Shown here: positions 3,586 to 58,218 of the stretch, piece by piece | Position numbering within the stretch: the stretch's first letter is position 1 | Layout of the letters: each line of letters starts with the position of its first letter | Source: an uncultured bacterium | Lineage (GTDB): Bacteria > Omnitrophota > Omnitrophia > Omnitrophales > Aquincolibacteriaceae | Length of the DNA stretch: 64,000 bases | NCBI GenBank assembly: GCA_964508905.1 | Contig: CAZDVO010000001.1 | Span: 3,977-67,976 of the forward strand | Direction: 5' to 3' | Position numbers and translations under genes: made by a program | The notes under the pieces: model-generated | What the model saw: the letters and a program-made list of their open reading frames with translations, nothing else | Database searches by the model: none | Told to the model about the DNA's origin: nothing

Positions 3586-3828
3586 TCATTTCGGGCTCTC
3601 CTGCTGTTCAAGGATTTTTTTAATTTGGATCAATGTATAATTCTTTGCCTGCAAGATCTTGATCTGCTCCAACCGATCGAACACGGATTCATCATAAAGC
3701 CGGTGACCTGAGATCGTTCGCCGGGCCTCGTGGATCAGCCCCGCCACGGTATAGTTATGAAGCGTCTGCCGGGAAAGACTGGTGTACTGCATCACTTCCC
3801 CGATCTTATAGAGTTTTTCGCGTTTCAT
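3586..3828 (-). CDS. Short MerR-family HTH transcriptional regulator
   Basis: KIGEVMQYTSLSRQTLHNYTVAGLI...SGHRLYDESVFDRLEQIKILQAKNYTLIQIK is a MerR N-terminal HTH. Only 80 aa. Its start overlaps the stop of the upstream gene in ATGA fashion. Confidence 0.55.
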   Translation of the reverse strand: MKREKLYKIGEVMQYTSLSRQTLHNYTVAGLIHEARRTISGHRLYDESVFDRLEQIKILQAKNYTLIQIKKILEQQESPK

Positions 3829-4978: not shown

Positions 4979-6034
4979 CTACTTCTCGGCGAAGATCCCC
5001 ATCTTCCGGAATTTCTGATACCGCAACTCCGGTAATTCCTTGCGCGGGATCTTTTTTAGTTCTTCCAACGCATCATTCACGGTCTTACGCACATTTTCCG
5101 CCGTTGCGTTGAAATCACGATGAGCGCCACCAAGAGGTTCCGGGATCACGCCATCGATCACTCCGAGCCCAACAAGGTCCGGTCCCGTCAGCTTCAAAGC
5201 TGTCGCGGCGTCCGGCGCGCGTGTCGGTTCCTTCCAAAGAATGGCCGCGCACCCTTCCGGTGAGATCACGGAGTAATAAGCATTCTCCATCACGAAGATC
5301 TTGTCCCCCACGCCGATCCCCAATGCGCCGCCGCTCCCGCCTTCGCCGATCACGATACAAATGATCGGCGTCTTGAGTTCGCCCATCGCCCGCAAGTTAT
5401 AGGCGATCGCTTCGGCCTGGCCGCGCTCTTCGGCTCCGATCCCGGGATAAGCTCCGGGGGTATCGATGAAACAGAGGATCGGAAGATTGTGTTTCGCCGC
5501 AAGCTCCATCACCCTCATGGCCTTGCGATAACCTTCAGGATGCGCGCTCCCGAAACTGCGCATCAGATTTTCTTTCGTGTCGCGTCCTTTTTGGTGCCCG
5601 ATAATGCAGATCGGCTCGCGTCCTTCCCATTTCGCGATCCCGGTCACGATCGCCCGGTCATCGCTAAAGCGTCGATCCCCGTGGATCTCCAGGAAATCGG
5701 TCGTCAGATAATTCACATAGTCGAGCGTGTAGGGACGAAGAGGGTGCCTCGCCACCTGGACCCGTTGCCAGGGCGTCAGATGATCAAAGATCTCCTGAAT
5801 CGCCTTCTCGAGCTTTTTCTCCGCGCTCTTGATCTCTCCCGAAAGATCGATGCCCTCGTGGCTGATCTTGCGCAGTTCGTTAATCTTCTTTTCCATCTCA
5901 ACGACAGGCCGCTCGAAAGACAGACAGGCGTCAAAAATATCCCGTGTCCCGAGCTTGATCTTTTCCTTCGCGATGACCGGCGCGACAGGCTCGCTGTGAA
6001 CGATCTTTTTCTTTTTGGCTGTCTTTTTTTTCAT
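4979..6034 (-). CDS. accA: Acetyl-CoA carboxylase carboxyltransferase alpha subunit
   Basis: ...LTPWQRVQVARHPLRPYTLDY...IDTPGAYPGIGAEERGQAEAIA...GEGGSGGALGIGVGDKIFVMENAYYSVISPEGCAAILWK... It has an unusual Lys-rich N-terminal extension of about 85 aa. Confidence 0.9.
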   Translation of the reverse strand: MKKKTAKKKKIVHSEPVAPVIAKEKIKLGTRDIFDACLSFERPVVEMEKKINELRKISHEGIDLSGEIKSAEKKLEKAIQEIFDHLTPWQRVQVARHPLRPYTLDYVNYLTTDFLEIHGDRRFSDDRAIVTGIAKWEGREPICIIGHQKGRDTKENLMRSFGSAHPEGYRKAMRVMELAAKHNLPILCFIDTPGAYPGIGAEERGQAEAIAYNLRAMGELKTPIICIVIGEGGSGGALGIGVGDKIFVMENAYYSVISPEGCAAILWKEPTRAPDAATALKLTGPDLVGLGVIDGVIPEPLGGAHRDFNATAENVRKTVNDALEELKKIPRKELPELRYQKFRKMGIFAEK

Positions 6035-6055
6035 AAGAGGAAAAACCTTCCCAGG

Positions 6056-6982
6056 TTAATCTTGAATGGTCACTTTCGTCCCCATGGGGACGATCGAATA
6101 GAGTTCTTCAACGTCTTCGTTCAACATACGAACACAGCCCTCGGAAGCCTGAGTGCCGATGCTTTTGGGATCGATCGTACCGTGAATGCCGTAGGAAGGT
6201 TTATCAAAACCCATCCAACGCGTCCCAAGACCATTCTCGGGACTTCCCGGCGGCAGGATAGCCCCCGTTTTAAACCAGGTCGGATTCAAAAGCTTATCCT
6301 TGATCTCAAACGTTCCCACCGGCGTCGAATTGTTTTTCCCCGTTGCCACGGAGTACTTTTTGACCGGCAAACCGTCTGAGAAAAGCGTCAGTGTATTTTT
6401 CGACTTATCCACCAAGATCGAAAAGGGGGCCGTATGGACCTTCAATTTCGTCCCTGCGTACAGATTGTCGCTCTTCATCCCATTGATCTTCTTGATCAGA
6501 TCCACCGTCGTATGATGTTTCTTGGCGATCACATAGAAGCTATCCCCGGACTTCACCGTGTAGGAAATGCTGTCCTTCGTCACATCCTTTGAAAAGATCA
6601 CCTTCCATCGCTTTTCCATAGCCGCGACTTCGGCGGTCGCCGGTTCGGCTTTCTTCTTAGGCTCCGCCGCTTTTTTCGCAGGCGACACCTTGGCGACGGG
6701 CTTCGCCGTGTGGGATGCTACCTTAGTCGCCGCGGATTTGGCCGCGGAAGCATGGACGGCTTTTTTTTCGCTCACAGCAACCGTGGCGACAGGCGCAACT
6801 TTGGGCTGGGGGTTATAGAGATTTTTTTCGTCAAAGGCATCATGCTCCGACGAAGCGCCCGCATGAGGTTTGATCGCTTGATCGGTCGTTTTCGCCTTGG
6901 GAGGTTCTTCGGAGAAAAGGGGCGAAACTCCACACAACAACGCCCCCAGAAAGAGGCTTGCGGCCCAATAAGGCTTCTTCAT
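6056..6982 (-). CDS. LysM-domain L,D-transpeptidase (YkuD family), secreted
   Basis: Signal peptide MKKPYWAASLFLGALLCGVSPLFS; LysM (YTVKSGDSFYVIAKKHHTTVDLIKKINGM); L,D-transpeptidase catalytic region ...GIHGT...SEGCVRM. The ATG at 6980-6982 overlaps the stop of the upstream DUF212 gene. The ORF-track start at 6997 is probably an upstream alternative. Confidence 0.75.
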   Translation of the reverse strand: MKKPYWAASLFLGALLCGVSPLFSEEPPKAKTTDQAIKPHAGASSEHDAFDEKNLYNPQPKVAPVATVAVSEKKAVHASAAKSAATKVASHTAKPVAKVSPAKKAAEPKKKAEPATAEVAAMEKRWKVIFSKDVTKDSISYTVKSGDSFYVIAKKHHTTVDLIKKINGMKSDNLYAGTKLKVHTAPFSILVDKSKNTLTLFSDGLPVKKYSVATGKNNSTPVGTFEIKDKLLNPTWFKTGAILPPGSPENGLGTRWMGFDKPSYGIHGTIDPKSIGTQASEGCVRMLNEDVEELYSIVPMGTKVTIQD

Positions 6983-7473
6983 TATTTCCACCCGCAAAAA
7001 AGGAACGCCAGAGTGATCCCCAGCGCGGCGCCGGCAAGCACCTCGAAAGGGGTATGGCCCAAAAGCTCTTTGAGCCTTTTCTCCGGCACAGCCCCCTTCG
7101 CATAAAACTCATCGACCATCTCGTTCAGGATCTTCCCCTGACAACCGAGGTGTCGGCGGACCCCCGCCGCGTCAAACATGGTGATCAAACAGATGATCAA
7201 TCCCATCAAGAACGGAATGCTTTTAAATCCATAGTAAAGACCGACCACGGTCGCAAGGCTCGCCACGGTCGCGGAATGAGCGCTCGGCATGCCACCGGTA
7301 TCAAAAAGCCAGCGGACATCGAACTTCTTTTTGCGGGCACCCCCCAGAATGACCTTGAGGGCCTGAGCGACGAACCAGCTCAGAAAAACAGCGGCAAAGG
7401 CTTTTTCGCTTTCAAAAGGGGGATTGAAGACGGCGATCATGAATTTTCCGGAAAACCCAAAAAGGGTTGACAC
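6982..7473 (-). CDS. Divergent PAP2 / DUF212 (YuiD-like) membrane protein
   Basis: The motif GGMPSAHSATVASLAT is typical of the acid phosphatase / vanadium-haloperoxidase-related DUF212 family; the protein has several TM segments. Confidence 0.6.
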   Translation of the reverse strand: MSTLFGFSGKFMIAVFNPPFESEKAFAAVFLSWFVAQALKVILGGARKKKFDVRWLFDTGGMPSAHSATVASLATVVGLYYGFKSIPFLMGLIICLITMFDAAGVRRHLGCQGKILNEMVDEFYAKGAVPEKRLKELLGHTPFEVLAGAALGITLAFLFCGWK

Positions 7474-18031: not shown

Positions 18032-18340
18032 TTACTTATTCTTTAAATAGTAGAGCTTCGCGCGGCGGGCTTTGCCCTTCACGCTCACGGTGATCTTCTC
18101 GACGTTCGGCGAATGGACCGGGAAGATCTTCTCGACCTTGTCCCCGTAGCTTTCTTTGAGGACCGTAAAGCTAGCGCGGACGCCTTTGCCTTTTTTACGG
18201 ATACAAACCCCTTCAAAGAGCTGGGTGCGGGTCTTGTCGCCTTCTTTCACGCGGATATGGACCTTCAACGTATCCCCCACGCGAAACTCCGGCGTTTTTT
18301 TCTCTGCGGCTTCTTTTTCGACGATATCCATTTTACTCAT
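18032..18340 (-). CDS. rplS: 50S ribosomal protein L19
   Basis: FRVGDTLKVHIRVKEGDKTRTQLFEGVCIRKKGKGVRASFTVLKESYGDKVEKIFPVHSPNVEKITV is L19 along its full length. Confidence 0.9.
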   Translation of the reverse strand: MSKMDIVEKEAAEKKTPEFRVGDTLKVHIRVKEGDKTRTQLFEGVCIRKKGKGVRASFTVLKESYGDKVEKIFPVHSPNVEKITVSVKGKARRAKLYYLKNK

Positions 18341-18347
18341 TTTGGTT

Positions 18348-18469
18348 CCCCCGTTAGAGACAGAAAACGTTTTGAGAACGCCTCTGTTTAAAATTAATGG
18401 TTAAAGTTATTTCTTTATTCTCCCGCAATTGCGGGCCGAGACGTCTTCCTCCCCCGGTCTCTAACGGGG
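18348..18469. repeat. Intergenic element bounded by a 13-bp inverted repeat, CCCCCGTTAGAGAC ... GTCTCTAACGGGG (copy 1 of 3), between trmD and rplS
   Basis: A perfect 13-bp inverted repeat flanks about 95 bp of unrelated interior that contains a small internal palindrome, CCCGCAATTGCGGG. The right arm supplies the trmD stop codon (CCC CGT TAG). The left arm, read on the minus strand, supplies the GGGGGAA Shine-Dalgarno five or six nt before the rplS ATG. Confidence 0.6.
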
Positions 18470-19192
18470 TGATGATTGCAACAGATCCGGCCGCTTCTGG
18501 CGCGTGACCCGCTCGGCTTCATGATGACGCCAAAGGTCCACTTCTTTATGATCCCCGGAGAACAGCACCTCCGGGACTTTCCAACCCCGGTACTCCCGGG
18601 GCCTCGTATAATGAGGATGCTCAAGCATCCCCGTTTGAAAACTCTCGTGCTCGATCGACGCCGCGTTCCCGAGCACTCCCGGGACGAGCCGCGTCACCGC
18701 TTCGATCAGACACAACGCGGGAGCTTCCCCGCCCATCGTAATAAAATCACCGACCGAGATCTCCTGGTCGACCAGATGATCCTTCACGCGCTGGTCCACG
18801 CCTTCATAATGCCCCGCGATCAGGACCAGGTGCTTCTTTTTCGCGAGTTTCGCCGCGAGCTTCTGGCTCATCGGCTCCCCCTGGGGATCCATCAACACCA
18901 CCCAGGCTTTCTTTCCGACCTCTTCGACGCATTCAAAGAGAGGCTCGGGTTTCATCACCATCCCGGCCCCGCCTCCGAAGGGTTTATCGTCCGCGGTCTT
19001 ATGCCGGTCGTGCGTCCAATCCCGAAGATCATGCGTCCGGATCCGGACCCGCTTCTTCGCCTGGGCCTTTTCCAGAAGCGATTCCCCAAGCGGGCTTTTA
19101 AAGAACTCCGGAAAAAGCGTTACGATATCGATCGTAAGCCCCGTTAGAGATCCCCGCCTTTGTTGCTTCCCATTCTTTGAAACAGCTGGCAT
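18461..19192 (-). CDS. trmD: tRNA (guanine37-N1)-methyltransferase
   Basis: ...IDIVTLFPEFF...DDKPFGGGAGMVMKPEP...LIAGHYEGVDQRV...GDFITMGGEAPALCLIEAV... The N-terminus is uncertain. The ATG at 19192 lies inside inverted-repeat element 2 and would add a 20-aa extension. Homology points to a start near LTIDIV, but no canonical start codon is present there. Confidence 0.8.
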   Translation of the reverse strand: MPAVSKNGKQQRRGSLTGLTIDIVTLFPEFFKSPLGESLLEKAQAKKRVRIRTHDLRDWTHDRHKTADDKPFGGGAGMVMKPEPLFECVEEVGKKAWVVLMDPQGEPMSQKLAAKLAKKKHLVLIAGHYEGVDQRVKDHLVDQEISVGDFITMGGEAPALCLIEAVTRLVPGVLGNAASIEHESFQTGMLEHPHYTRPREYRGWKVPEVLFSGDHKEVDLWRHHEAERVTRQKRPDLLQSSPR

Positions 19193-19242
19193 GGCTCCTT
19201 CTCCCCACCAAACAACCTAAACCATGCTTATCTCTAACGGGG
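19139..19242. repeat. Intergenic element bounded by the inverted repeat CCCCGTTAGAGAT ... ATCTCTAACGGGG (copy 2 of 3), between rpsP and trmD
   Basis: A perfect 13-bp inverted repeat with about 77 bp of unrelated interior. The right arm is nested in a second small hairpin, CATGCTTA...TAAGCATG. The element occupies the position where rimM lies in the canonical rpsP-rimM-trmD-rplS operon. Confidence 0.6.
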
Positions 19243-19274
19243 TAAGCATGCGGACGCCCTCCGGCCTTTAGGCC

Positions 19275-19535
19275 TTAGGCGCTCTTCTTCGACGTTTTCT
19301 TCTTTTCACGACGGACCAGGCTCTTCAAAGCGACGCTCATCTGCGCGCCCTGCTTCACCCAATAATCCAGGCGATCCTGCTTCACGATGAACTTATCTTC
19401 TTTGGGAAGAGCATCGTAAAAACCGATCTCCTCGATAAAGCGCCCATCACGCGGCATCTTCGCGTCACTGACCACGATGCGCCACTGCGGACGGCCCTTA
19501 GTACCGACACGTTTCATTCTGATCTTGACTGCCAC
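19275..19535 (-). CDS. rpsP: 30S ribosomal protein S16
   Basis: MAVKIRMKRVGTKGRPQWRIVVSDAKMPRDGRFIEEIGFYDALP... Confidence 0.9.
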   Translation of the reverse strand: MAVKIRMKRVGTKGRPQWRIVVSDAKMPRDGRFIEEIGFYDALPKEDKFIVKQDRLDYWVKQGAQMSVALKSLVRREKKKTSKKSA

Positions 19536-39204: not shown

Positions 39205-40410
39205 TCAAATTTTTCGAAGAAGCACGGCCGCGACTTGCCCGCCGAATCCCATCGAAAGTTTTACCGCGCTTGCCGCCTTCCGGGCCCGCGCTTTCCCGGG
39301 GACATAGTCAAGATCGCACGCGGGATCGCTTTTTTCAAGCCCCACGGTCGGAGGCAGGAATCCTTCGTGGATCCCCAACAGCGTCGCGATGATCTCCACC
39401 GCCCCCGTCGCTCCGAGCATATGCCCGGTCGCGCCCTTGGTCGAACTCATCGGAATGCGGTACGCCGCCGCGCCAAGGGCTTCCTTGATCTCCCGGGTCT
39501 CGTAGAGATCGCCATATTTTGTCCCGGTCCCGTGTAAATGCAAGTAATCGATATCGCTCGGGCCGATCCCGGCCCGCTTCAGCAGAAGTTTCAGCGTGTA
39601 CGAAAGCGCGTGTTCTTCCGGATCAAAAATGATCGGGTGCTTGCTGTCCTGCCCGTAGGCGGATTCGACGATCTCGCCGTAGATCCGCGCTCCCCGCGCC
39701 TTCGCGTTTTCCAGCGTCTCCAGAAAGACCACACCCGCGCCTTCACCGACCAGGAAACCGTCCCGGCGCGCGTCAAACGGGCGAAGGTCGCTTTTCGCGA
39801 GCGCTTTCATATTCTGGTATCCCGCGAGCATCAGGGAAGAAAGTGAAGCGTCGGTCGCTCCCGCCAGGCAATATTCGGCCTGCCCTTCGGAAACCATCCG
39901 GAAACCCTGGATGATCGCGACCGTCCCCGTCGTGCACGCGGACGCGTAACATTGAGCCGGCCCCCGGACATTCATCCGGCGGGCGATCCACTGGGCCGCG
40001 AGATTGGGTAGCGCGCTCGTGTAGAGCCGGGCGCCCAGGATCGCGCTCGGGGACTTCCGAAAACGTTCGGCAAGTTGGCTCAGGCTGTGAACGCCGCCTT
40101 TGCTCGAGCTGACGGAAAGCGCGACCGCGTAAGGATCGACTTTGCTCAGGTCCATCCCCGCGTCCGCGACGGCTTGTTCGGCGGCGGCCACGGCGTATTG
40201 AATGAAGGGATCGAGCTTCTGCGTCGCGTTTGGGCGCGGGTTAAAATCCCTCACGGGAAAAACGGGCGGAAACCGGTAGCCTTCAGGCGTCACGTATTCC
40301 CCGGACGCTTTGCCGCAAACCCCTTGTTTGAGATTCTCGCGGAACGCGTCCAGAGTATTTCCGATCGGCGAAAGCACTCCCATCCCTGTCACAACCACGC
40401 GTCTTTTCAC
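39205..40410 (-). CDS. fabF: 3-oxoacyl-ACP synthase II (FabF-like KAS), located inside the biotin operon
   Basis: VKRRVVVTGMGVLSPIGNT...CTTG...HGTGT...GHMLGATGAVE... is full-length KAS-II-like. The start is set at the GTG (VKRRVVV) that abuts the arm of inverted-repeat element 3. The in-frame ATG at 40482 lies inside that element and would add 24 aa. Confidence 0.8.
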   Translation of the reverse strand: MKRRVVVTGMGVLSPIGNTLDAFRENLKQGVCGKASGEYVTPEGYRFPPVFPVRDFNPRPNATQKLDPFIQYAVAAAEQAVADAGMDLSKVDPYAVALSVSSSKGGVHSLSQLAERFRKSPSAILGARLYTSALPNLAAQWIARRMNVRGPAQCYASACTTGTVAIIQGFRMVSEGQAEYCLAGATDASLSSLMLAGYQNMKALAKSDLRPFDARRDGFLVGEGAGVVFLETLENAKARGARIYGEIVESAYGQDSKHPIIFDPEEHALSYTLKLLLKRAGIGPSDIDYLHLHGTGTKYGDLYETREIKEALGAAAYRIPMSSTKGATGHMLGATGAVEIIATLLGIHEGFLPPTVGLEKSDPACDLDYVPGKARARKAASAVKLSMGFGGQVAAVLLRKI

Positions 40411-40530
40411 CCTGTTAGAGATGGGAAGCGCTTCTGAAGCGCTTCCGTTAAATCCTCTTTTTTCTTGTCCGGAATTTTTCATGTTTTCCGCCTAAAAAAT
40501 CTCGCCTCGTTTTACGAATCTCTAACGGGG
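40410..40530. repeat. Intergenic element bounded by the inverted repeat CCCTGTTAGAGAT ... ATCTCTAACGGGG (copy 3 of 3), between fabG and fabF
   Basis: The 13-bp inverted repeat has one mismatch. About 95 bp of unrelated interior includes the hairpin GGAAGCGCTTC-TGAA-GCGCTTCC. This spot is where acpP lies in canonical fab clusters. Confidence 0.55.
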
Positions 40531-40551: not shown

Positions 40552-41283
40552 CTACGAGAAAGGACGGGATTCAAAATGAAAGACTTGCCCCGTCACCTGA
40601 CGCATCTGGTCAGAGGCGAGGTAAACAAGAAAGCCGGCCACTTCCTCCGGATCGGAAAAAGCCTTCAGCGGACTGTCTTCCAGGTTCCGGTCGAGAACGG
40701 CCTGCGGCACCTTCCCGGTCATCGCGGACCGCATAAACCCTGGGTTCACGGCATTCACGAGGATCTTTTTGCGCCCGAGCTCCCGGGCGAGCGTTTTGGT
40801 CATCGCGATCAGGCCGCCTTTGGCCGCGGCATAATTCGCGGCGCCGGCAAGTCCGGAGAGTCCCGCGCGGCTCACGAGCGTGAATACTTTGCTCGGTTTC
40901 CGTCGCATCAGAAGCGGCAGTAGTTTCTGCGTCAGATAGAACGGGGCTTTGAGGTCGACCGCGAGGACCCGGTCCCAATCCTGTTCAGACATTTTTTCAA
41001 GCAGGCTGTCGGCCGTGGCCGCGGCGTTGTGAATGAGAACGTCCAGTTGTTCCGTTCCCCGCGAGAAGGCGTCGACAAAAGCATCGATCGCCCGGCTGTC
41101 GCCCAGATCGAGCGCGACGCCGCGGGCGCCGGCCCTTTCCAGTTCGGCGGCAAGGTCGGAGGCCCGGTGATACGTGAAAAAAACGCGGGCACCTTGCGCG
41201 AGGGCTTGAGTCACGAACGCGCGGCCCAAGGCACTGGTGCCGCCCGTGATCAGAATGGTTTTATCTTTGAGGGAAAGTTCCAA
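40552..41283 (-). CDS. fabG: 3-oxoacyl-ACP reductase (SDR family, FabG-like)
   Basis: TILITGGTSALGRAF (Rossmann fold) ...NAA...S...YAAAKGG... (SDR catalytic YxxxK). Confidence 0.75.
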   Translation of the reverse strand: MELSLKDKTILITGGTSALGRAFVTQALAQGARVFFTYHRASDLAAELERAGARGVALDLGDSRAIDAFVDAFSRGTEQLDVLIHNAAATADSLLEKMSEQDWDRVLAVDLKAPFYLTQKLLPLLMRRKPSKVFTLVSRAGLSGLAGAANYAAAKGGLIAMTKTLARELGRKKILVNAVNPGFMRSAMTGKVPQAVLDRNLEDSPLKAFSDPEEVAGFLVYLASDQMRQVTGQVFHFESRPFS

Positions 41284-45880: not shown

Positions 45881-48343
45881 CTACCCGAGCGTCACTTCGA
45901 CCCGGTGCGTGCGCCCGTCCCGAAGGTCCGGGATCAGGTTCTCTTTTTGCTTTTTCCCGTCCACGAGAATCTCCTTCACCCCTTGCCCCGTCTGCGACGG
46001 ATTTTTCACGTCGATCAGATAGGTGGCGCCGCGGAAAAGCCGTTTCATTTTGAATCCCGGCCACTTCTTTGGGATCACGGGGTCCACAAGCAATCCTTTC
46101 GCCGTTGGACGGATCCCGAGCAGCCAATTCATCACCACCACGGCATACCACGCCGCGGAACCGGTGTACCAACTCCAACCGCCGCGCCCGTTGTTCGGAG
46201 AATCCGGTCCGTCCACATTGCCCGGGGTCACATACGGTTCGGTGTAATAGATATCCGGTTCGAGGCCGCGCTGCGCGGGGTTGAAACTTTTGTAGACCTG
46301 ATAGGCCTTGTCACCGTCCCGCATCATCGCCTCGGCCTGGACCGCCCAGGTCCCGGCATGCGTGTAGAGCCCGCCGTTCTCGCGGACGGAAGGCGCGTAA
46401 CGCGTGATATAGCCGATCGTCGCGTCGGTCTTGTTATAACCCGGCGTTAAAAGGAGCGGCCCGTATTTCTTATAGAGCCATTTCTCGGCCGAATCCATCG
46501 CGATGCGGGCGCGCTTCGCGTCCGCCGTCCCGGTGATCACCGACCAGGTCTGGCAATTCAGAAAGATCTTTCCCGTCTCGCATTTCTTGCTGCCCAACGG
46601 ACGGCCGTCGTCGCGGGTCGCGCCGAGATACCACTCCCCGTCCCACCCCGCGTCATTGACGGCGCGCTTCAGCTCTTCGGCGCGCTTCACATATTCTGCC
46701 GCCTTGGCCTTGTCGCCGCGTTTTTCCATCAGCGGCGCGATACGCGTCAGGATCCCGTAAAGAAAATGCCCGAGCCAGATCGATTCGCCGCGCCACTTGA
46801 TGCCCACGTGGCTTAAGCCGTCGTTCCAATCGCATTCACCCATCAGCGGCAGTCCGCGCGGAGAGAACCGCGTGAGCGCTTTATCGATCGAGCGAAGCAG
46901 ATGGTCATAAAGCGACCCTGAGGTGACCTTCCGTTCCGGGTCTTTCGGGTCCGGCAGGAATTTCACATCGGCGTCAAGGATCGCTTCGTCGGCCGTTTCA
47001 TCCAGATAGTTCAACGTAATGAAATCCAGCCACAGAAGATCGTCGGAGCAATTCGTGATCGCGCCGATATTCGTCCCGTGATGCCACCAGTGGTACACCG
47101 TCCCGTCGGGGAACTGTTGTTCGGCGTGCAGGAGGATCTGCTTTTTCGCGAGCTCGGGACGCGTCGCGAAGAAGATCTGACAATCCTGAAGCTGGTCGCG
47201 GAAACCGTAGCCGCCGCTTGACTGATAATAGGCGCATTTGCCCCAGATGCGCGCCGAGATCGCCTGGTATTTCATCCAGGTGTTCGTCATGAAATTGAGC
47301 GATTCGTCCGGCGTCTCCACTTCGGTCGCGCGGACAAAAGAATCCCACAAGGCTTTGACCTTCGCGAGCTCCTGCTCCGCAACTTTAGGCCCCGCGTATT
47401 TCCGAATGATCCTCTCGGCTTCTTCGCGGGTCCGGGTCGAGCCCAGCGTAAAAACAACGGTCTTGGATTCTTTAGGGCCAAGCTCAACATCCACTTGAAG
47501 GCTCGCGGACGCGTCGCCCCATTTACCCTCGGAGTTGCGGCAGGCCCCTTCCACTACGGCGGCCGGCGCGTGCAATTCTCCGTACCGTCCGAGGAAAGAT
47601 TCCTTGTCGCCGTCATAAGCCACCGGCTTCGGATAGGAAGCGTGAAAGCCTTGGAGCGGTTTTTCCGCGACGCCGGTCGAAATAAATCCCGGGACAAGCG
47701 GCGCGCGCTTGATGCCGTGGATGCAGCCGCTCTTGCGGTCGATCCAGGTCTCGATAAATGTTTTTTGGAATTCGCGATGCGTGTCGGTCCAGCTGCCGAG
47801 GCACCAGTCGAAATAGGTGAACAGGCTCAAGCGCCGTTTTTTCCCGGACTCGTTCTTCACGGTCACTTTCCAGACCTCGACCGGATCTTCCACATCAACA
47901 AAGATCGTTTTCTCGAGACGGATCCCGTTCAACTTGCTGGTGAGGACGGAATATCCCTGCCCGTGGCGTACTTCAAAAAAATCATATTTCGGCATACACG
48001 GTTTCCAGGTCCCGGACCAGAAGTCCCCGTTATCCCGGTCGCGCACATAGAGATATTTTCCCCAGTTGTCGCGGATGAGGTCCTGGTCCCAGCGCGTAAT
48101 GCGGGACAGGTTCGAATTGTCCCGCCACGAAAACCCAGAACCGGTTTGCGTTTCGATCATCCCGTAATCCCCGTTCGAGATCACGTTCACCCACGGGCGC
48201 GGCGTGTCGGGCCTCGTGATGATGAATTCCCGGCCGTCCTCGGAAAAATGCCCGTATTTTGAGGCGAATTTTTTCCCGGAATGATCTTCCTGTTTCAAAA
48301 GCTTCGCTTCCGCTTTTTTTCTCTCTTTCGACTTTCTAGGCAT
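45881..48343 (-). CDS. GH94-family glycoside phosphorylase (cellobiose / 1,2-beta-oligoglucan phosphorylase type)
   Basis: At 820 aa the length is typical of the family. ...GECDWNDGLSHVG... (GH94 catalytic-Asp region) and conservation along the whole N-terminal beta-sandwich and (alpha/alpha)6 barrel. Confidence 0.75.
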   Translation of the reverse strand: MPRKSKERKKAEAKLLKQEDHSGKKFASKYGHFSEDGREFIITRPDTPRPWVNVISNGDYGMIETQTGSGFSWRDNSNLSRITRWDQDLIRDNWGKYLYVRDRDNGDFWSGTWKPCMPKYDFFEVRHGQGYSVLTSKLNGIRLEKTIFVDVEDPVEVWKVTVKNESGKKRRLSLFTYFDWCLGSWTDTHREFQKTFIETWIDRKSGCIHGIKRAPLVPGFISTGVAEKPLQGFHASYPKPVAYDGDKESFLGRYGELHAPAAVVEGACRNSEGKWGDASASLQVDVELGPKESKTVVFTLGSTRTREEAERIIRKYAGPKVAEQELAKVKALWDSFVRATEVETPDESLNFMTNTWMKYQAISARIWGKCAYYQSSGGYGFRDQLQDCQIFFATRPELAKKQILLHAEQQFPDGTVYHWWHHGTNIGAITNCSDDLLWLDFITLNYLDETADEAILDADVKFLPDPKDPERKVTSGSLYDHLLRSIDKALTRFSPRGLPLMGECDWNDGLSHVGIKWRGESIWLGHFLYGILTRIAPLMEKRGDKAKAAEYVKRAEELKRAVNDAGWDGEWYLGATRDDGRPLGSKKCETGKIFLNCQTWSVITGTADAKRARIAMDSAEKWLYKKYGPLLLTPGYNKTDATIGYITRYAPSVRENGGLYTHAGTWAVQAEAMMRDGDKAYQVYKSFNPAQRGLEPDIYYTEPYVTPGNVDGPDSPNNGRGGWSWYTGSAAWYAVVVMNWLLGIRPTAKGLLVDPVIPKKWPGFKMKRLFRGATYLIDVKNPSQTGQGVKEILVDGKKQKENLIPDLRDGRTHRVEVTLG

Positions 48344-56859: not shown

Positions 56860-58218
56860 ATGGTTTCTCCTTCGTCCATACCGGCAGACCCCTCATTAAC
56901 GGACCTTTGGAAGAAGATCTGCGCGATCCTCTCGAGAGAATTGAGCGAACGTTCCTTCAAGACCTGGTTTGAGCCTGTTTTGGTTCTTTCTGTCTCGCAA
57001 GACGCGCTCACGCTCGGCGTGCCAGACGCCTACTACGGAAAATGGCTTGAGGACCATTACCAAAATCTGGTGCTTTCTTCCGTAGAAGAAGTGCTCGGTC
57101 GCCCTCTCTCTGTTTCTTATCAAGTCGTTGAGCCGCCTAAGGTTACGCCTTCGACGCCCGTCACACAGCCTTCTTCTCCTAGAGAAAAAGAAGAGGCTGC
57201 CGCGGGCTGGAATCAACGCTACACCTTTGATGATTTTGTGATCGGCCCCGGCAACCGTTTTGCGCATGCGGCCGCGGTCGCGGTCAGCGAATCGCCGGCC
57301 AAACAATACAATCCTCTCTTTATTTATGGCCCGACCGGACTTGGAAAGACCCATCTTCTTCAGTCTATCGCTCATGAGATGAAGCGTCGGCATCCTGAGT
57401 TTAAGATCCTGTATATATCCAGTGAAAAGTTCACGAATCAGTTGATCACCGCGATCCAGACAAAATCGACTCCCCAATTCCGCGCAAAATATCGCACGCT
57501 CGATCTTTTGCTGATAGACGATGTCCATTTTATCGCGGAAAAAGACTCAACCCAGGAGGAATTCTTCAATACCTTCAATGCTCTTTATGATGCACACAAG
57601 CAGATCGTGGTCACTAGCGATCGTCCTCCGCGAGAAATTCCCGGCCTGGAAGAGCGCCTTGTTTCGCGTTTCGGCTGGGGCCTTGTCACGGATATTCAGC
57701 CTCCTGATTTTGAAACGCGCGTGGCTATTTTGAAGAAGAAAATGGAGCGGGAAACCGTTGTGGTGCCTGATGATGTGGCGTATTTCATCGCGGACAAGAT
57801 CAAATCGAATATTCGAGAGTTGGAGGGGGCGCTCATCCGGGTCGTCGCTTTTTGTTCCCTCACAAACTCCAAGATCGATGTCCGCCTGGCGCAGGAAATA
57901 TTGAAGGATGCTTTTAAGGAAGAGGCTCAAAAATTCACAATAGAAGGGATACAAAAAGTGGTTGCGGATTTCTTTAATGTGAAGGTTTCGGACCTCCGCG
58001 CCAAAAGACGTTCTTCCTCGATCGTCCGCCCTCGGCAGATCGCGATGTTCCTTGTTCGGGAGCTTACTTCTCACTCACTTCCAGAGATCGGGGAATATTT
58101 TGGTGGAAAAGACCACACCACCGTTCTCCATTCTTACAACAAAATCTTGGCAGAAAGAGAAAAAGATGTTGCTATGAGGGGTTTATTGGATAAGCTTATT
58201 GGATTGTTAAAAAAATAG
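56860..58218 (+). CDS. dnaA: Chromosomal replication initiator DnaA
   Basis: ...GPTGLGKTHLLQSIAHE... (Walker A), ...LLIDDVHFIAEKDSTQEEFFNTFNAL..., and the C-terminal DNA-binding domain ...RPRQIAMFLVRELTSHSLPEIGEYFGGKDHTTVLHS... Confidence 0.95.
   Translation: MVSPSSIPADPSLTDLWKKICAILSRELSERSFKTWFEPVLVLSVSQDALTLGVPDAYYGKWLEDHYQNLVLSSVEEVLGRPLSVSYQVVEPPKVTPSTPVTQPSSPREKEEAAAGWNQRYTFDDFVIGPGNRFAHAAAVAVSESPAKQYNPLFIYGPTGLGKTHLLQSIAHEMKRRHPEFKILYISSEKFTNQLITAIQTKSTPQFRAKYRTLDLLLIDDVHFIAEKDSTQEEFFNTFNALYDAHKQIVVTSDRPPREIPGLEERLVSRFGWGLVTDIQPPDFETRVAILKKKMERETVVVPDDVAYFIADKIKSNIRELEGALIRVVAFCSLTNSKIDVRLAQEILKDAFKEEAQKFTIEGIQKVVADFFNVKVSDLRAKRRSSSIVRPRQIAMFLVRELTSHSLPEIGEYFGGKDHTTVLHSYNKILAEREKDVAMRGLLDKLIGLLKK

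Follow-up and report, generated by a model that had tools for sequence, protein, structure and literature searches.

The Correia elements of Neisseria (Correia repeat enclosed elements [CREE], or Neisseria miniature insertion sequences [NEMIS]) alter the expression signals of neighboring genes and are co-transcribed, and their stems are substrates of RNase III. The Rickettsia palindromic elements (RPEs) add in-frame peptide segments, and the mycobacterial interspersed repetitive units (MIRUs) carry short open reading frames (ORFs) that overlap the stop and start codons of flanking genes. Elements of the insertion sequence (IS) family IS1380 and of piggyBac share 4-bp target-site duplications and 5'-CC..GG-3' termini (PMC10045372); IS1380 members have inverted repeats of 13 to 16 bp (PMC3281130), and piggyBac has 13-bp terminal inverted repeats, duplicates TTAA, and is excised free of any footprint through hairpins on the element ends (PMC8151067). 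Here we analyze three short repeats with inverted arms in a 64-kb stretch of DNA (64,000 nucleotides [nt] of contig CAZDVO010000001.1, hereafter the window) from an uncultured bacterium of the Omnitrophota. Given target duplications, empty sites, separate hits on one and the same site, copies that lie in tandem or nested, and hundreds of copies in different phyla, we conclude that the three repeats are likely copies of a non-autonomous mobile DNA element resembling a transposable element of the miniature inverted-repeat kind (MITE).

The window holds three such elements of 104 to 121 bp (Table 1), each bounded by the arms CCCCGTTAGAGA / TCTCTAACGGGG. An earlier, sequence-only reading of this DNA had described three copies with inverted-repeat arms, and arm matches, pairing, and folding all bear this description out; its coordinates hold for copies 2 and 3, whereas copy 1 begins at 18349 and not at 18348. 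The exact arm 12-mer was observed five times in 64 kb, compared with an expectation of ~0.008 on both strands, and a search that allowed up to three mismatches per arm found no additional arm pair in the window. A solitary one-mismatch arm (CCCCGTTCGAGA, 48169 to 48180) lies within a long ORF with no partner nearby and is probably a chance match. The 13th base pair of the arms is also paired in all three copies. The interiors between the 12-mers measure 97, 80, and 97 nt in copies 1, 2, and 3, respectively, and do not align with one another. Predicted RNA folds place the arms as the closing stem in all three copies, with minimum free energies of −49.7, −38.9, and −42.7 kcal/mol and z-scores of −5.7, −2.6, and −3.9 versus shuffled controls. 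No terminator or promoter was predicted inside the window copies. The Rfam 15 covariance models gave no match on the window, the region from 18300 to 19300 yielding chance-level matches only at an E value of ≤10; a CRISPR-DR32 match of 18.3 bits, compared with a gathering score of 48, was dismissed as noise.

The arm pair is not confined to the window or to this Omnitrophota genome. A scan of bacteria and archaea, at one genome per species, for exact arms separated by a spacer of 72 to 102 nt (at least 119 loci) recovered the pair from at least 119 species-representative genomes spanning more than 10 phyla, compared with a chance expectation of ~0.07 (596 Gb × 31 spacings / 4^24). These numbers, together with the five exact arms in 64 kb, rule out a chance origin of the arms. 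Among the matches listed, the Omnitrophota account for about one-third of the loci, and the other hosts include Planctomycetota, Elusimicrobiota, Nitrospirota/Thermodesulfovibrionia, Desulfobacterota, and a range of Patescibacteria (the candidate phyla radiation [CPR]), namely, Saccharibacteria and Uhr-, Kaiser-, Moran-, Doudna-, and Komeilibacteria. Ratteibacteria, WOR-3, Stahlbacteria, Auribacterota, and single metagenome-assembled genomes (MAGs) of Actinomycetota, Clostridia, and Bdellovibrionales complete the hosts in this set. Copies are multiple within genomes, with three in the 64-kb window and at least 3 to 5 in each of several MAGs. There were no arm-pair matches in the IMG/VR viral contigs (0 matches) or in the PLSDB plasmids. 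A full-text literature search for the arm sequences returned unrelated primers only, and searches for MITEs in these phyla returned nothing. The family appears to be undescribed and is best regarded as a MITE with ends like those of IS1380 and piggyBac.

Indications of mobility come from the immediate flanks of the copies. All family statistics refer to 128 copies, 125 from the loci listed and 3 from the window. Identical 4-mers flank 75 of these 128 copies, compared with 3 of 128 for 5-mers, so the signal is exactly 4 bp long, as expected of a fixed-length duplication. The duplicated 4-mers are TAAA (41 copies), TGAA (13 copies), TCAA (9 copies), and nine rarer sequences, and the 75 empty sites reconstructed from them give the target G/TNAA, in which the G before the insertion point (slash) is present in 68%. 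Sites that are filled in the window are empty in the related loci L133, L130, L134, and L139, and sites have been filled independently in L135 and L127. Tandem pairs separated by exactly one 4-mer occur at L012, L028, L058, L062, L064, L067, and L075 (e.g., L075, 3369 to 3617); since such pairs share one 4-mer, new copies often land at the GGGG/TNAA junction of an existing copy. At L001 (3773 to 4160), the two halves of an internal hairpin of the B type described below (TAGGAAACGCTTCAG ... CTGAAGCGTTTCCGT) lie ~260 bp apart with another element between them, an arrangement that, judged from the sequence, is a nested insertion into the hairpin loop. Duplications, empty sites, and repeated hits fit an alternative that the sequence-only reading had entertained, namely, a REP/MITE-like repeat moved by a nuclease or recombinase.

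Copy 2 provides the clearest case. TrmD homologues place the window in Candidatus Omnitrophota. The closest relative, L133, encodes a TrmD that is 90% identical and has the empty site CC ATG CTT ACG ATC GAT, whereas the window reads GC ATG CTTA(104 bp)CTTA CG ATC GAT; copy 2 has thus inserted cleanly just past the original trmD start codon and is flanked by a duplicated CTTA. The earlier reading had taken this copy to be intergenic and to occupy the slot of rimM. It lies inside trmD instead, and in relatives without the element, too, rpsP and trmD are only 26 to 29 nt apart. With or without the element, rimM is missing from this gap (26 to 29 nt in L127, L130, and the P0002 contigs) in the Omnitrophota clade concerned. 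The ancestral trmD ATG (19247 to 19249, minus strand) now meets a TAG after 10 codons, and the element-borne start (Table 1) adds 18 residues, MPAVSKNGKQQRRGSLTG, to TrmD, compared with homologues of 222 to 230 amino acids (aa) without the extension. In L135 (81% identical), an element of a different subfamily (1033 to 1156) sits at the identical CTTA, and its own start (MKKASSP...SLTG) is now the start of TrmD. In L137 (~1420 to 1560), the arms of the same insertion have decayed while the N-terminal extension, MKKASKPAVKQAASFAGS-TIDVV, has been kept. The cases of L135 and L137 look like domestication of element sequence as TrmD coding sequence. The TrmD of P0008 begins MKKASSPTEALHKKRFLSLTG-LTIDVV, an analogous element-derived leader ending in SLTG, and P0039 retains a leader of the P0008 type despite decay of the arms.

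Copy 1 lies at the trmD/rplS junction. In L130 and L133, which lack an element there, the two genes overlap by 4 nt (ATGA), as they also do, on gene coordinates only, in two P0002 contigs (L129 is the same DNA stretch as L130 with a different rplS start called). Read on the minus strand, the trmD-side arm gives CCC CGT TAG, and its TAG (18461 to 18463) is the trmD stop codon; the TrmD C terminus of relatives differs (..QSSSRRAQ). The GGGG of the opposite arm, with the G at 18348, forms GGGGG 8 nt upstream of the rplS ATG (18338 to 18340), in the Shine-Dalgarno position, the place at which L133 has AAGGAG. Both the stop codon and the ribosome-binding position had been correctly called from the sequence alone. 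L127 carries another element at the trmD-rplS junction, a few nucleotides from the position of copy 1; we rejected a single ancestral insertion, given the different left junctions of the two elements and the empty sites of closer relatives. As a further sign of mobility, contigs from the organism that the window belongs to break inside or beside copy 1, 66 to 337 nt upstream of rplS.

Copy 3 sits between a FabG-like gene and a FabF-like gene. On the minus strand, the final G of its arm and the flanking TG make up the GTG start (40408 to 40410) of a 401-aa FabF-like protein, nearly all homologues of which are also 401 aa long and begin MKRRVVVTG. In L139 (93% identical), the FabG/FabF junction is empty, with ATG AAA AGA at the start point of copy 3. 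The interior of copy 3 also contains an in-frame ATG at 40480 to 40482 (minus strand).

Table 1. Positions of the three elements, their parts, and the neighboring genes in the window
Feature	Position	Strand	Remarks
Copy 1, whole element	18349-18469		
Copy 1, arm beside rplS	18349-18361	+	CCCCGTTAGAGAC
Copy 1, interior	18362-18456		AT-rich, no start codon, small hairpins
Copy 1, arm beside trmD	18457-18469	+	GTCTCTAACGGGG
Copy 2, whole element	19139-19242		Arms 19139-19151 and 19230-19242; within trmD, 4 nt past the ancestral ATG
Copy 2, target-site duplication, first	19135-19138		TAAG on +, CTTA on the gene strand
Copy 2, target-site duplication, second	19243-19246		
Copy 2, element-borne GAAGGAG and ATG	19190-19201	-	ATG at 19190-19192; in frame via the arm (S L T G) into TrmD
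Copy 3, whole element	40410-40530		
Copy 3, arm beside FabF-like gene	40410-40422		CCCTGTTAGAGAT, one mismatch
Copy 3, interior	40423-40517		B-type hairpin GGAAGCGCTTC-N-GAAGCGCTTCC (~40424-40446) by the gene-proximal arm; AT-rich remainder
Copy 3, arm beside FabG-like gene	40518-40530		ATCTCTAACGGGG
Exact 12-mer CCCCGTTAGAGA, copy 1	18349-18360	+	Sequence match
Exact 12-mer CCCCGTTAGAGA, copy 1	18458-18469	-	Sequence match
Exact 12-mer CCCCGTTAGAGA, copy 2	19139-19150	+	Sequence match
Exact 12-mer CCCCGTTAGAGA, copy 2	19231-19242	-	Sequence match
Exact 12-mer CCCCGTTAGAGA, copy 3	40519-40530	-	Sequence match
One-mismatch arm CCCTGTTAGAGA (CCCTG), copy 3	40410-40421		
rplS	18032-18340	-	
trmD	End 18461	-	
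rpsP	19275-19535	-	
FabF-like gene	End 39205	-	
FabG-like gene	40552-41283	-	

Farther along the window, parB/parA, mnmG, yidC, dnaA (56860 to 58218), dnaN, and gyrB are grouped between 49855 and 62330, as judged by N-terminal sequences, and the window probably spans the replication origin region.

Across the family, the sole constant part of the element is a 13-bp terminal inverted repeat, CCCCGTTAGAGAN...NTCTCTAACGGGG. The perfect arms of 12 to 13 bp recur in the 125 copies from other genomes, and in 118 of 128 copies the complementarity extends to the 13th pair. The copies are small and non-coding, 31 to 128 bp long with interiors of 5-8 to ~104 bp, and none of 130 to 420 bp occurs among the matches listed. 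Clustering of the interiors resolved several subfamilies, only the arms being common to every copy. The absence of related interiors and of MITE-like homogeneity, which the earlier reading had stressed, is therefore true within the window and not across genomes, where subfamilies have homologous interiors. Family A (21 members, 106 to 113 bp) carries a third copy of the arm after the left arm and two more hairpins. In B-type copies, a hairpin (TAGG-stem-loop-stem-CCGT) adjoins one arm on its inner side and the rest of the interior is AT-rich, and their two main stem types are GGTCG... and GGAAGCGC...; window copy 3 is a clear member of the GGAAGCGC type, copy 1 is a degenerate form of the B-type layout with its hairpin next to the arm, and the interior of copy 2 has no close relative in the clustering. 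Rfam gave no match on 18 loci holding family A and B copies. The shortest copies (31 to 32 bp) resemble family A deleted between the internal arm copy and the right arm; as apparent deletion derivatives, they were set aside as an argument against a DDE mechanism. One 31-bp mini-element, at L008, lies ~200 nt from a flavin mononucleotide riboswitch (3645 to 3800; Rfam RF00050, 82.5 bits).

The arms are built into gene boundaries, as the sequence-only reading had recognized in the window, and this property extends to the whole family. Read inward, the arm gives CCC CGT TAG in one frame. Read outward, it gives T CTC TAA in one frame, leaves the two others open (one as S L T G, the other as I S N G), and finishes with GGGG. 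Among the matches listed, 109 copies had enough flank to be assessed. In 13 of them, the arm TAG terminates an ORF with a length of 100 codons or more; 10 coincide with a stop codon, which consists of the first three bases of the duplicated 4-mer; and 12 create a GTG start by converting the target ATGAA into ...GGGG/TGAA. Altogether, 47 of the 109 either show one of these arrangements or lie no more than 30 nt past an ORF stop, compared with 8% of random positions near such an ORF end. Because its ends double as stop, ribosome-binding, and start signals, the element can insert at, or even within, essential-gene boundaries and yet not destroy them.

We propose that copies would persist in gene-dense genomes by such means, the arm imitating a stop/Shine-Dalgarno junction and, at suitable targets, rebuilding a GTG start. 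Copy 1 terminates trmD and provides GGGGG before rplS, copy 2 splits trmD after its start and supplies a replacement ribosome-binding site and ATG, and copy 3 sits on the FabF-like start codon and makes it GTG. In the mRNA, the 13-bp stem might bring the upstream stop beside the downstream start and might hide the GGGG until a terminating ribosome melts it; the coupling given by the ancestral ATGA overlap would thereby be preserved or restored. Such a role of the stem in translational coupling strikes us as rather doubtful.

Two further placements were noted. At L105, the arms enclose an intact tRNA-Ala(CGC) gene (5895 to 6000; also 5880 to 6040), and the arm-tRNA-arm unit itself lies within the anticodon loop of a second, Glu-like tRNA, after ..TTTTCA, at the canonical intron position 37/38. 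ARAGORN recognized the Glu-like tRNA only with the unit removed in silico; there is no duplication, and there are 5 extra nt. At L014, two related elements with a TTTA duplication (6334 to 6425 and 6918 to 7021) lie in the leader-peptide regions of two prepilin-type genes, where arm and flank read ..S L T G/F T L I E L M and the arm would encode residues up to the prepilin cleavage-site glycine.

Several observations weigh against a simple MITE-like element. Duplications are missing from 53 of 128 copies (41%), including window copies 1 and 3, and compared with relatives, 7 nt of spacer are gone beside copy 1 and ~27 nt beside copy 3. At least 17 of the duplication-less copies have flanks of the form TTNA-element-TNAA, a pattern not expected from simple staggered-cut insertion, and the mirror form was not seen. 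Most of these copies are of the GGAAGCGC type; a start codon lies 5 to 15 nt downstream of them, and their far side carries a purine-rich run and YTYR. The copies without duplications could possibly be accounted for by an adjacent deletion or by another mode of insertion. The orientation of family A is fixed relative to the asymmetric 4-mer in 21 of 21 copies and that of the B type in 13 of 14, a lock not usually seen in transposons whose ends are symmetric; the 4-mer of family A is TAAA in 20 of 21 copies, compared with 21 of 54 for the remainder. The internal hairpins are also unexpected in purely selfish cargo. Eight base pairs of the family A hairpins show compensatory changes, as do 7 of 7 stem pairs of the B type (in a set chosen for having the hairpin), and this conservation points to a single-stranded or RNA form under selection. 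The perfect conservation of the arms is in part built in, because the scan demanded exact arms. Lastly, no transposase, Y1/HUH enzyme, recombinase, or long element with these ends was found in the ~0.8 Mb flanking 125 copies; all-against-all clustering of the 853 ORFs at the loci yielded common paralogous families only, and no pair of proteins from different loci exceeded 60% identity.

Selection relative to transcription was rejected as the cause of the orientation lock, since the 4-mer is oriented without regard to the strand of the flanking genes (20 copies lie opposite to both neighbors, 14 share their strand, and 11 fall between divergent genes). Together, the lock and the family-specific 4-mer imply that the element carries information about its target.

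Because no mobility gene or shared protein was found at the loci, we take the element to be non-autonomous, its driver being rare, single-copy, or missing from these MAGs. An autonomous element with the same ends was not found in the ~0.8 Mb of flanks, the window, IMG/VR, or the PLSDB plasmids. Arm pairs 0.4 to 5 kb apart were rejected as autonomous elements, as they enclose housekeeping genes (e.g., a sugar transferase, isocitrate dehydrogenase, LpxB, TrpRS/TyrRS, and CTP synthase). Movement would be driven by a trans-acting enzyme that makes 4-nt staggered cuts in the target. Given the 5'-CC..GG-3' termini, the 13-bp repeats, and the 4-bp T-AA duplication, the most likely candidate is a DDE transposase of the IS1380/piggyBac type; the 4-bp duplication and the termini are those shared by both groups, whereas the palindromic TTAA target of piggyBac proper is found duplicated beside only 1 of the 75 copies. 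By analogy, we tentatively favor such an enzyme as the best lead, without claiming membership in either group. In piggyBac-type excision, the 4-nt flank overhangs would stay on the element and have to anneal at the new site, and if the excised element here keeps its flank overhangs, orientation and 4-mer choice would be inherited together.

Strict orientation combined with a family-specific tetranucleotide is a hallmark of IS200/IS605-type transposition, and the asymmetric 4-mer of our elements shows both. The copies might, then, be hairpin elements moved as single-stranded DNA by a single-copy domesticated Y1 (HUH) transposase encoded at another place in each genome, with the 4-mer as its cleavage and target tetranucleotide and not a product of staggered cuts, in the manner of repetitive extragenic palindromic (REP) sequences, their hairpin-forming doublets (REPINs), and REP-associated tyrosine transposases (RAYTs). 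Each copy can fold as one long hairpin, the internal hairpins are kept through compensatory changes, copies cluster in tandem like bacterial interspersed mosaic elements (BIMEs), and the matches listed include neither an autonomous element with the same ends nor intermediate sizes. We nonetheless consider this mechanism unlikely. The duplication, present in 59% of copies, involves twelve different 4-mers, each matching across its own copy even within one subfamily (TAAA and TCAA in cluster 5; six 4-mer types among the GGTCG-hairpin copies), whereas under the IS608 model the element takes its right-end tetranucleotide along, and this should not vary with the target. The 4-mer also abuts the arm, leaving no space for guide sequences, and REP sequences are lineage-specific, whereas the arms here are identical across more than 10 phyla. 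The absence of a Y1 gene from the flanks is a weak argument, as only about one hit would be expected by chance. A travelling core would likewise fix orientation and yield family-specific 4-mers if the elements were cassettes for site-specific recombination, whose joined ends, TCTCTAACGGGG-TNAA-CCCCGTTAGAGA, would make up a site of the lox or attC kind with 13-bp inverted sites around a 4-bp core. A recombinase would exchange it with chromosomal TNAA cores, and the 4-mers at the flanks would be this shared core and not a duplication. Precise excision would fit the clean empty sites, new copies often lie beside an existing arm (GGGG/TNAA), and the arm motifs GTTAGAG / CTCTAAC resemble integron core sites, the consensus of which is GTTRRRY / RYYYAAC. 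The targets, however, share little with the arms past G/TNAA, so there is no second recombinase-binding site; a 4-bp overlap is atypical of both tyrosine (6 to 8 bp) and serine (2 bp) recombinases; no integrase stands next to any copy among the matches listed; and the integrated polarity is opposite to that of attC, with perfect stems that lack extrahelical bases. We regard such a cassette as very improbable.

The same stems invite an explanation at the RNA level, in which the host selects the 13-bp stem as an RNase III-type processing site or an mRNA stabilizer, the preference of the sequence-only reading, or as a coupling device and the spread is secondary. The stems are predicted to be highly stable, cistron junctions are enriched in copies, the arm mimics a stop and Shine-Dalgarno (that of copy 1 replacing the ancestral AAGGAG), the internal hairpins covary, and one copy has its arms around an entire tRNA gene in the way of a processing stem. 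The elements, however, arrive by DNA insertion, as target duplications and clean empty sites show; the orientation of the 4-mer, to which families A and B are locked, bears no relation to the flanking gene strand; the closest relatives manage without copies; the arms decay where an element-borne start has been domesticated (L137); and Rfam offers no match. RNase III, moreover, needs no fixed sequence and so cannot explain 12-of-12 identity across phyla, nor is this reading needed to explain the conservation of the arms. Selection as an RNA element would seem quite unlikely as the origin of the family. A composite proposal makes the copies cross-phylum "junction adaptors," in which a stem in the mRNA loops out the insert and keeps stop and start coupled, RNA removal occurs in cases such as L105, and the mover is an orientation-specific integrase that reads an element-borne 4-nt code and not a classical IS transposase; we give this proposal little credence, about as much as the REPIN-like mechanism.

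If the MITE-like reading is correct, one miniature transposon family has colonized the compact genomes of much of uncultivated bacterial diversity (Omnitrophota, Patescibacteria/CPR, Planctomycetota, and Elusimicrobiota) and has remodeled essential genes at their starts, stops, and ribosome-binding sites. Wrong starts or N-terminal extensions would then be expected from gene callers, as with TrmD, and assemblies would break at copies. The family would be a rare bacterial counterpart of piggyBac-type elements, and its orientation lock and family-specific 4-mer could reveal target choice by flank overhangs or by another enzyme. It would also offer a natural test case for mobile-element ends that mimic translational signals and for the domestication of element-borne starts, and the identical 12-mer across phyla would serve as a marker of horizontal exchange among these lineages.

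Comparison with known systems places the family nearest to IS1380, piggyBac, and their MITEs, with which it shares a 4-bp duplication, 5'-CC...GG-3' ends, terminal inverted repeats of 13 to 16 bp (13 in piggyBac), an AT-rich T..AA target near the TTAA of piggyBac, and clean empty sites compatible with footprint-free excision. It differs from them in its asymmetric G/TNAA target in place of a palindromic TTAA, its locked orientation, the 41% of copies without a duplication, and the lack of a transposase of any family beside or between the copies found here. ISEcp1 begins CCTAGATTCTACG, a sequence different from our arm. Integron attC sites are likewise imperfect palindromes (57 to 141 bp) between co-directional genes, with conserved ends akin to the core-like GTTAGAG / CTCTAAC and structure that outweighs interior sequence. 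The sequence-only reading was right to reject attC on polarity, since the order here is GTTAGAG ... CTCTAAC and that of attC is the opposite, R'' (RYYYAAC) ... R' (GTTRRRY); the elements also have perfect stems, flanking duplications, and housekeeping neighbors, with no integrase and no cassette array.

REP sequences and REPINs with their RAYTs resemble the family as short extragenic palindromic units that form long hairpins, occur singly or in tandem, lack coding capacity, and have no autonomous version with the same ends, being presumably moved in trans. REPINs, however, have no target duplication, carry a conserved 5' GTAG-type tetranucleotide, and co-evolve with the RAYT of one lineage, whereas the elements here have a variable 4-bp duplication and arms that are identical across phyla. 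The Correia elements are also hairpin-forming MITEs of ~100 to 150 bp in or beside operons, and share with the family their effect on the expression signals of neighbors and their co-transcription, but with 26-bp inverted repeats, a TA duplication, a homogeneous interior, and a range of one genus, in contrast to the 13-bp ends, 4-bp duplication, unrelated interiors, and more than 10 phyla of the family described here. RPEs and MIRUs are, similarly, small repeats tolerated in or between genes, keeping frames or stop/start overlaps, but they are genus-restricted, have homologous interiors, and lack a 13-bp perfect inverted repeat with a 4-bp duplication. Against this background, the element family is unusual in its cross-phylum spread, its mimicry of translational signals, and its orientation-locked targeting, which is specified in part by the element itself.

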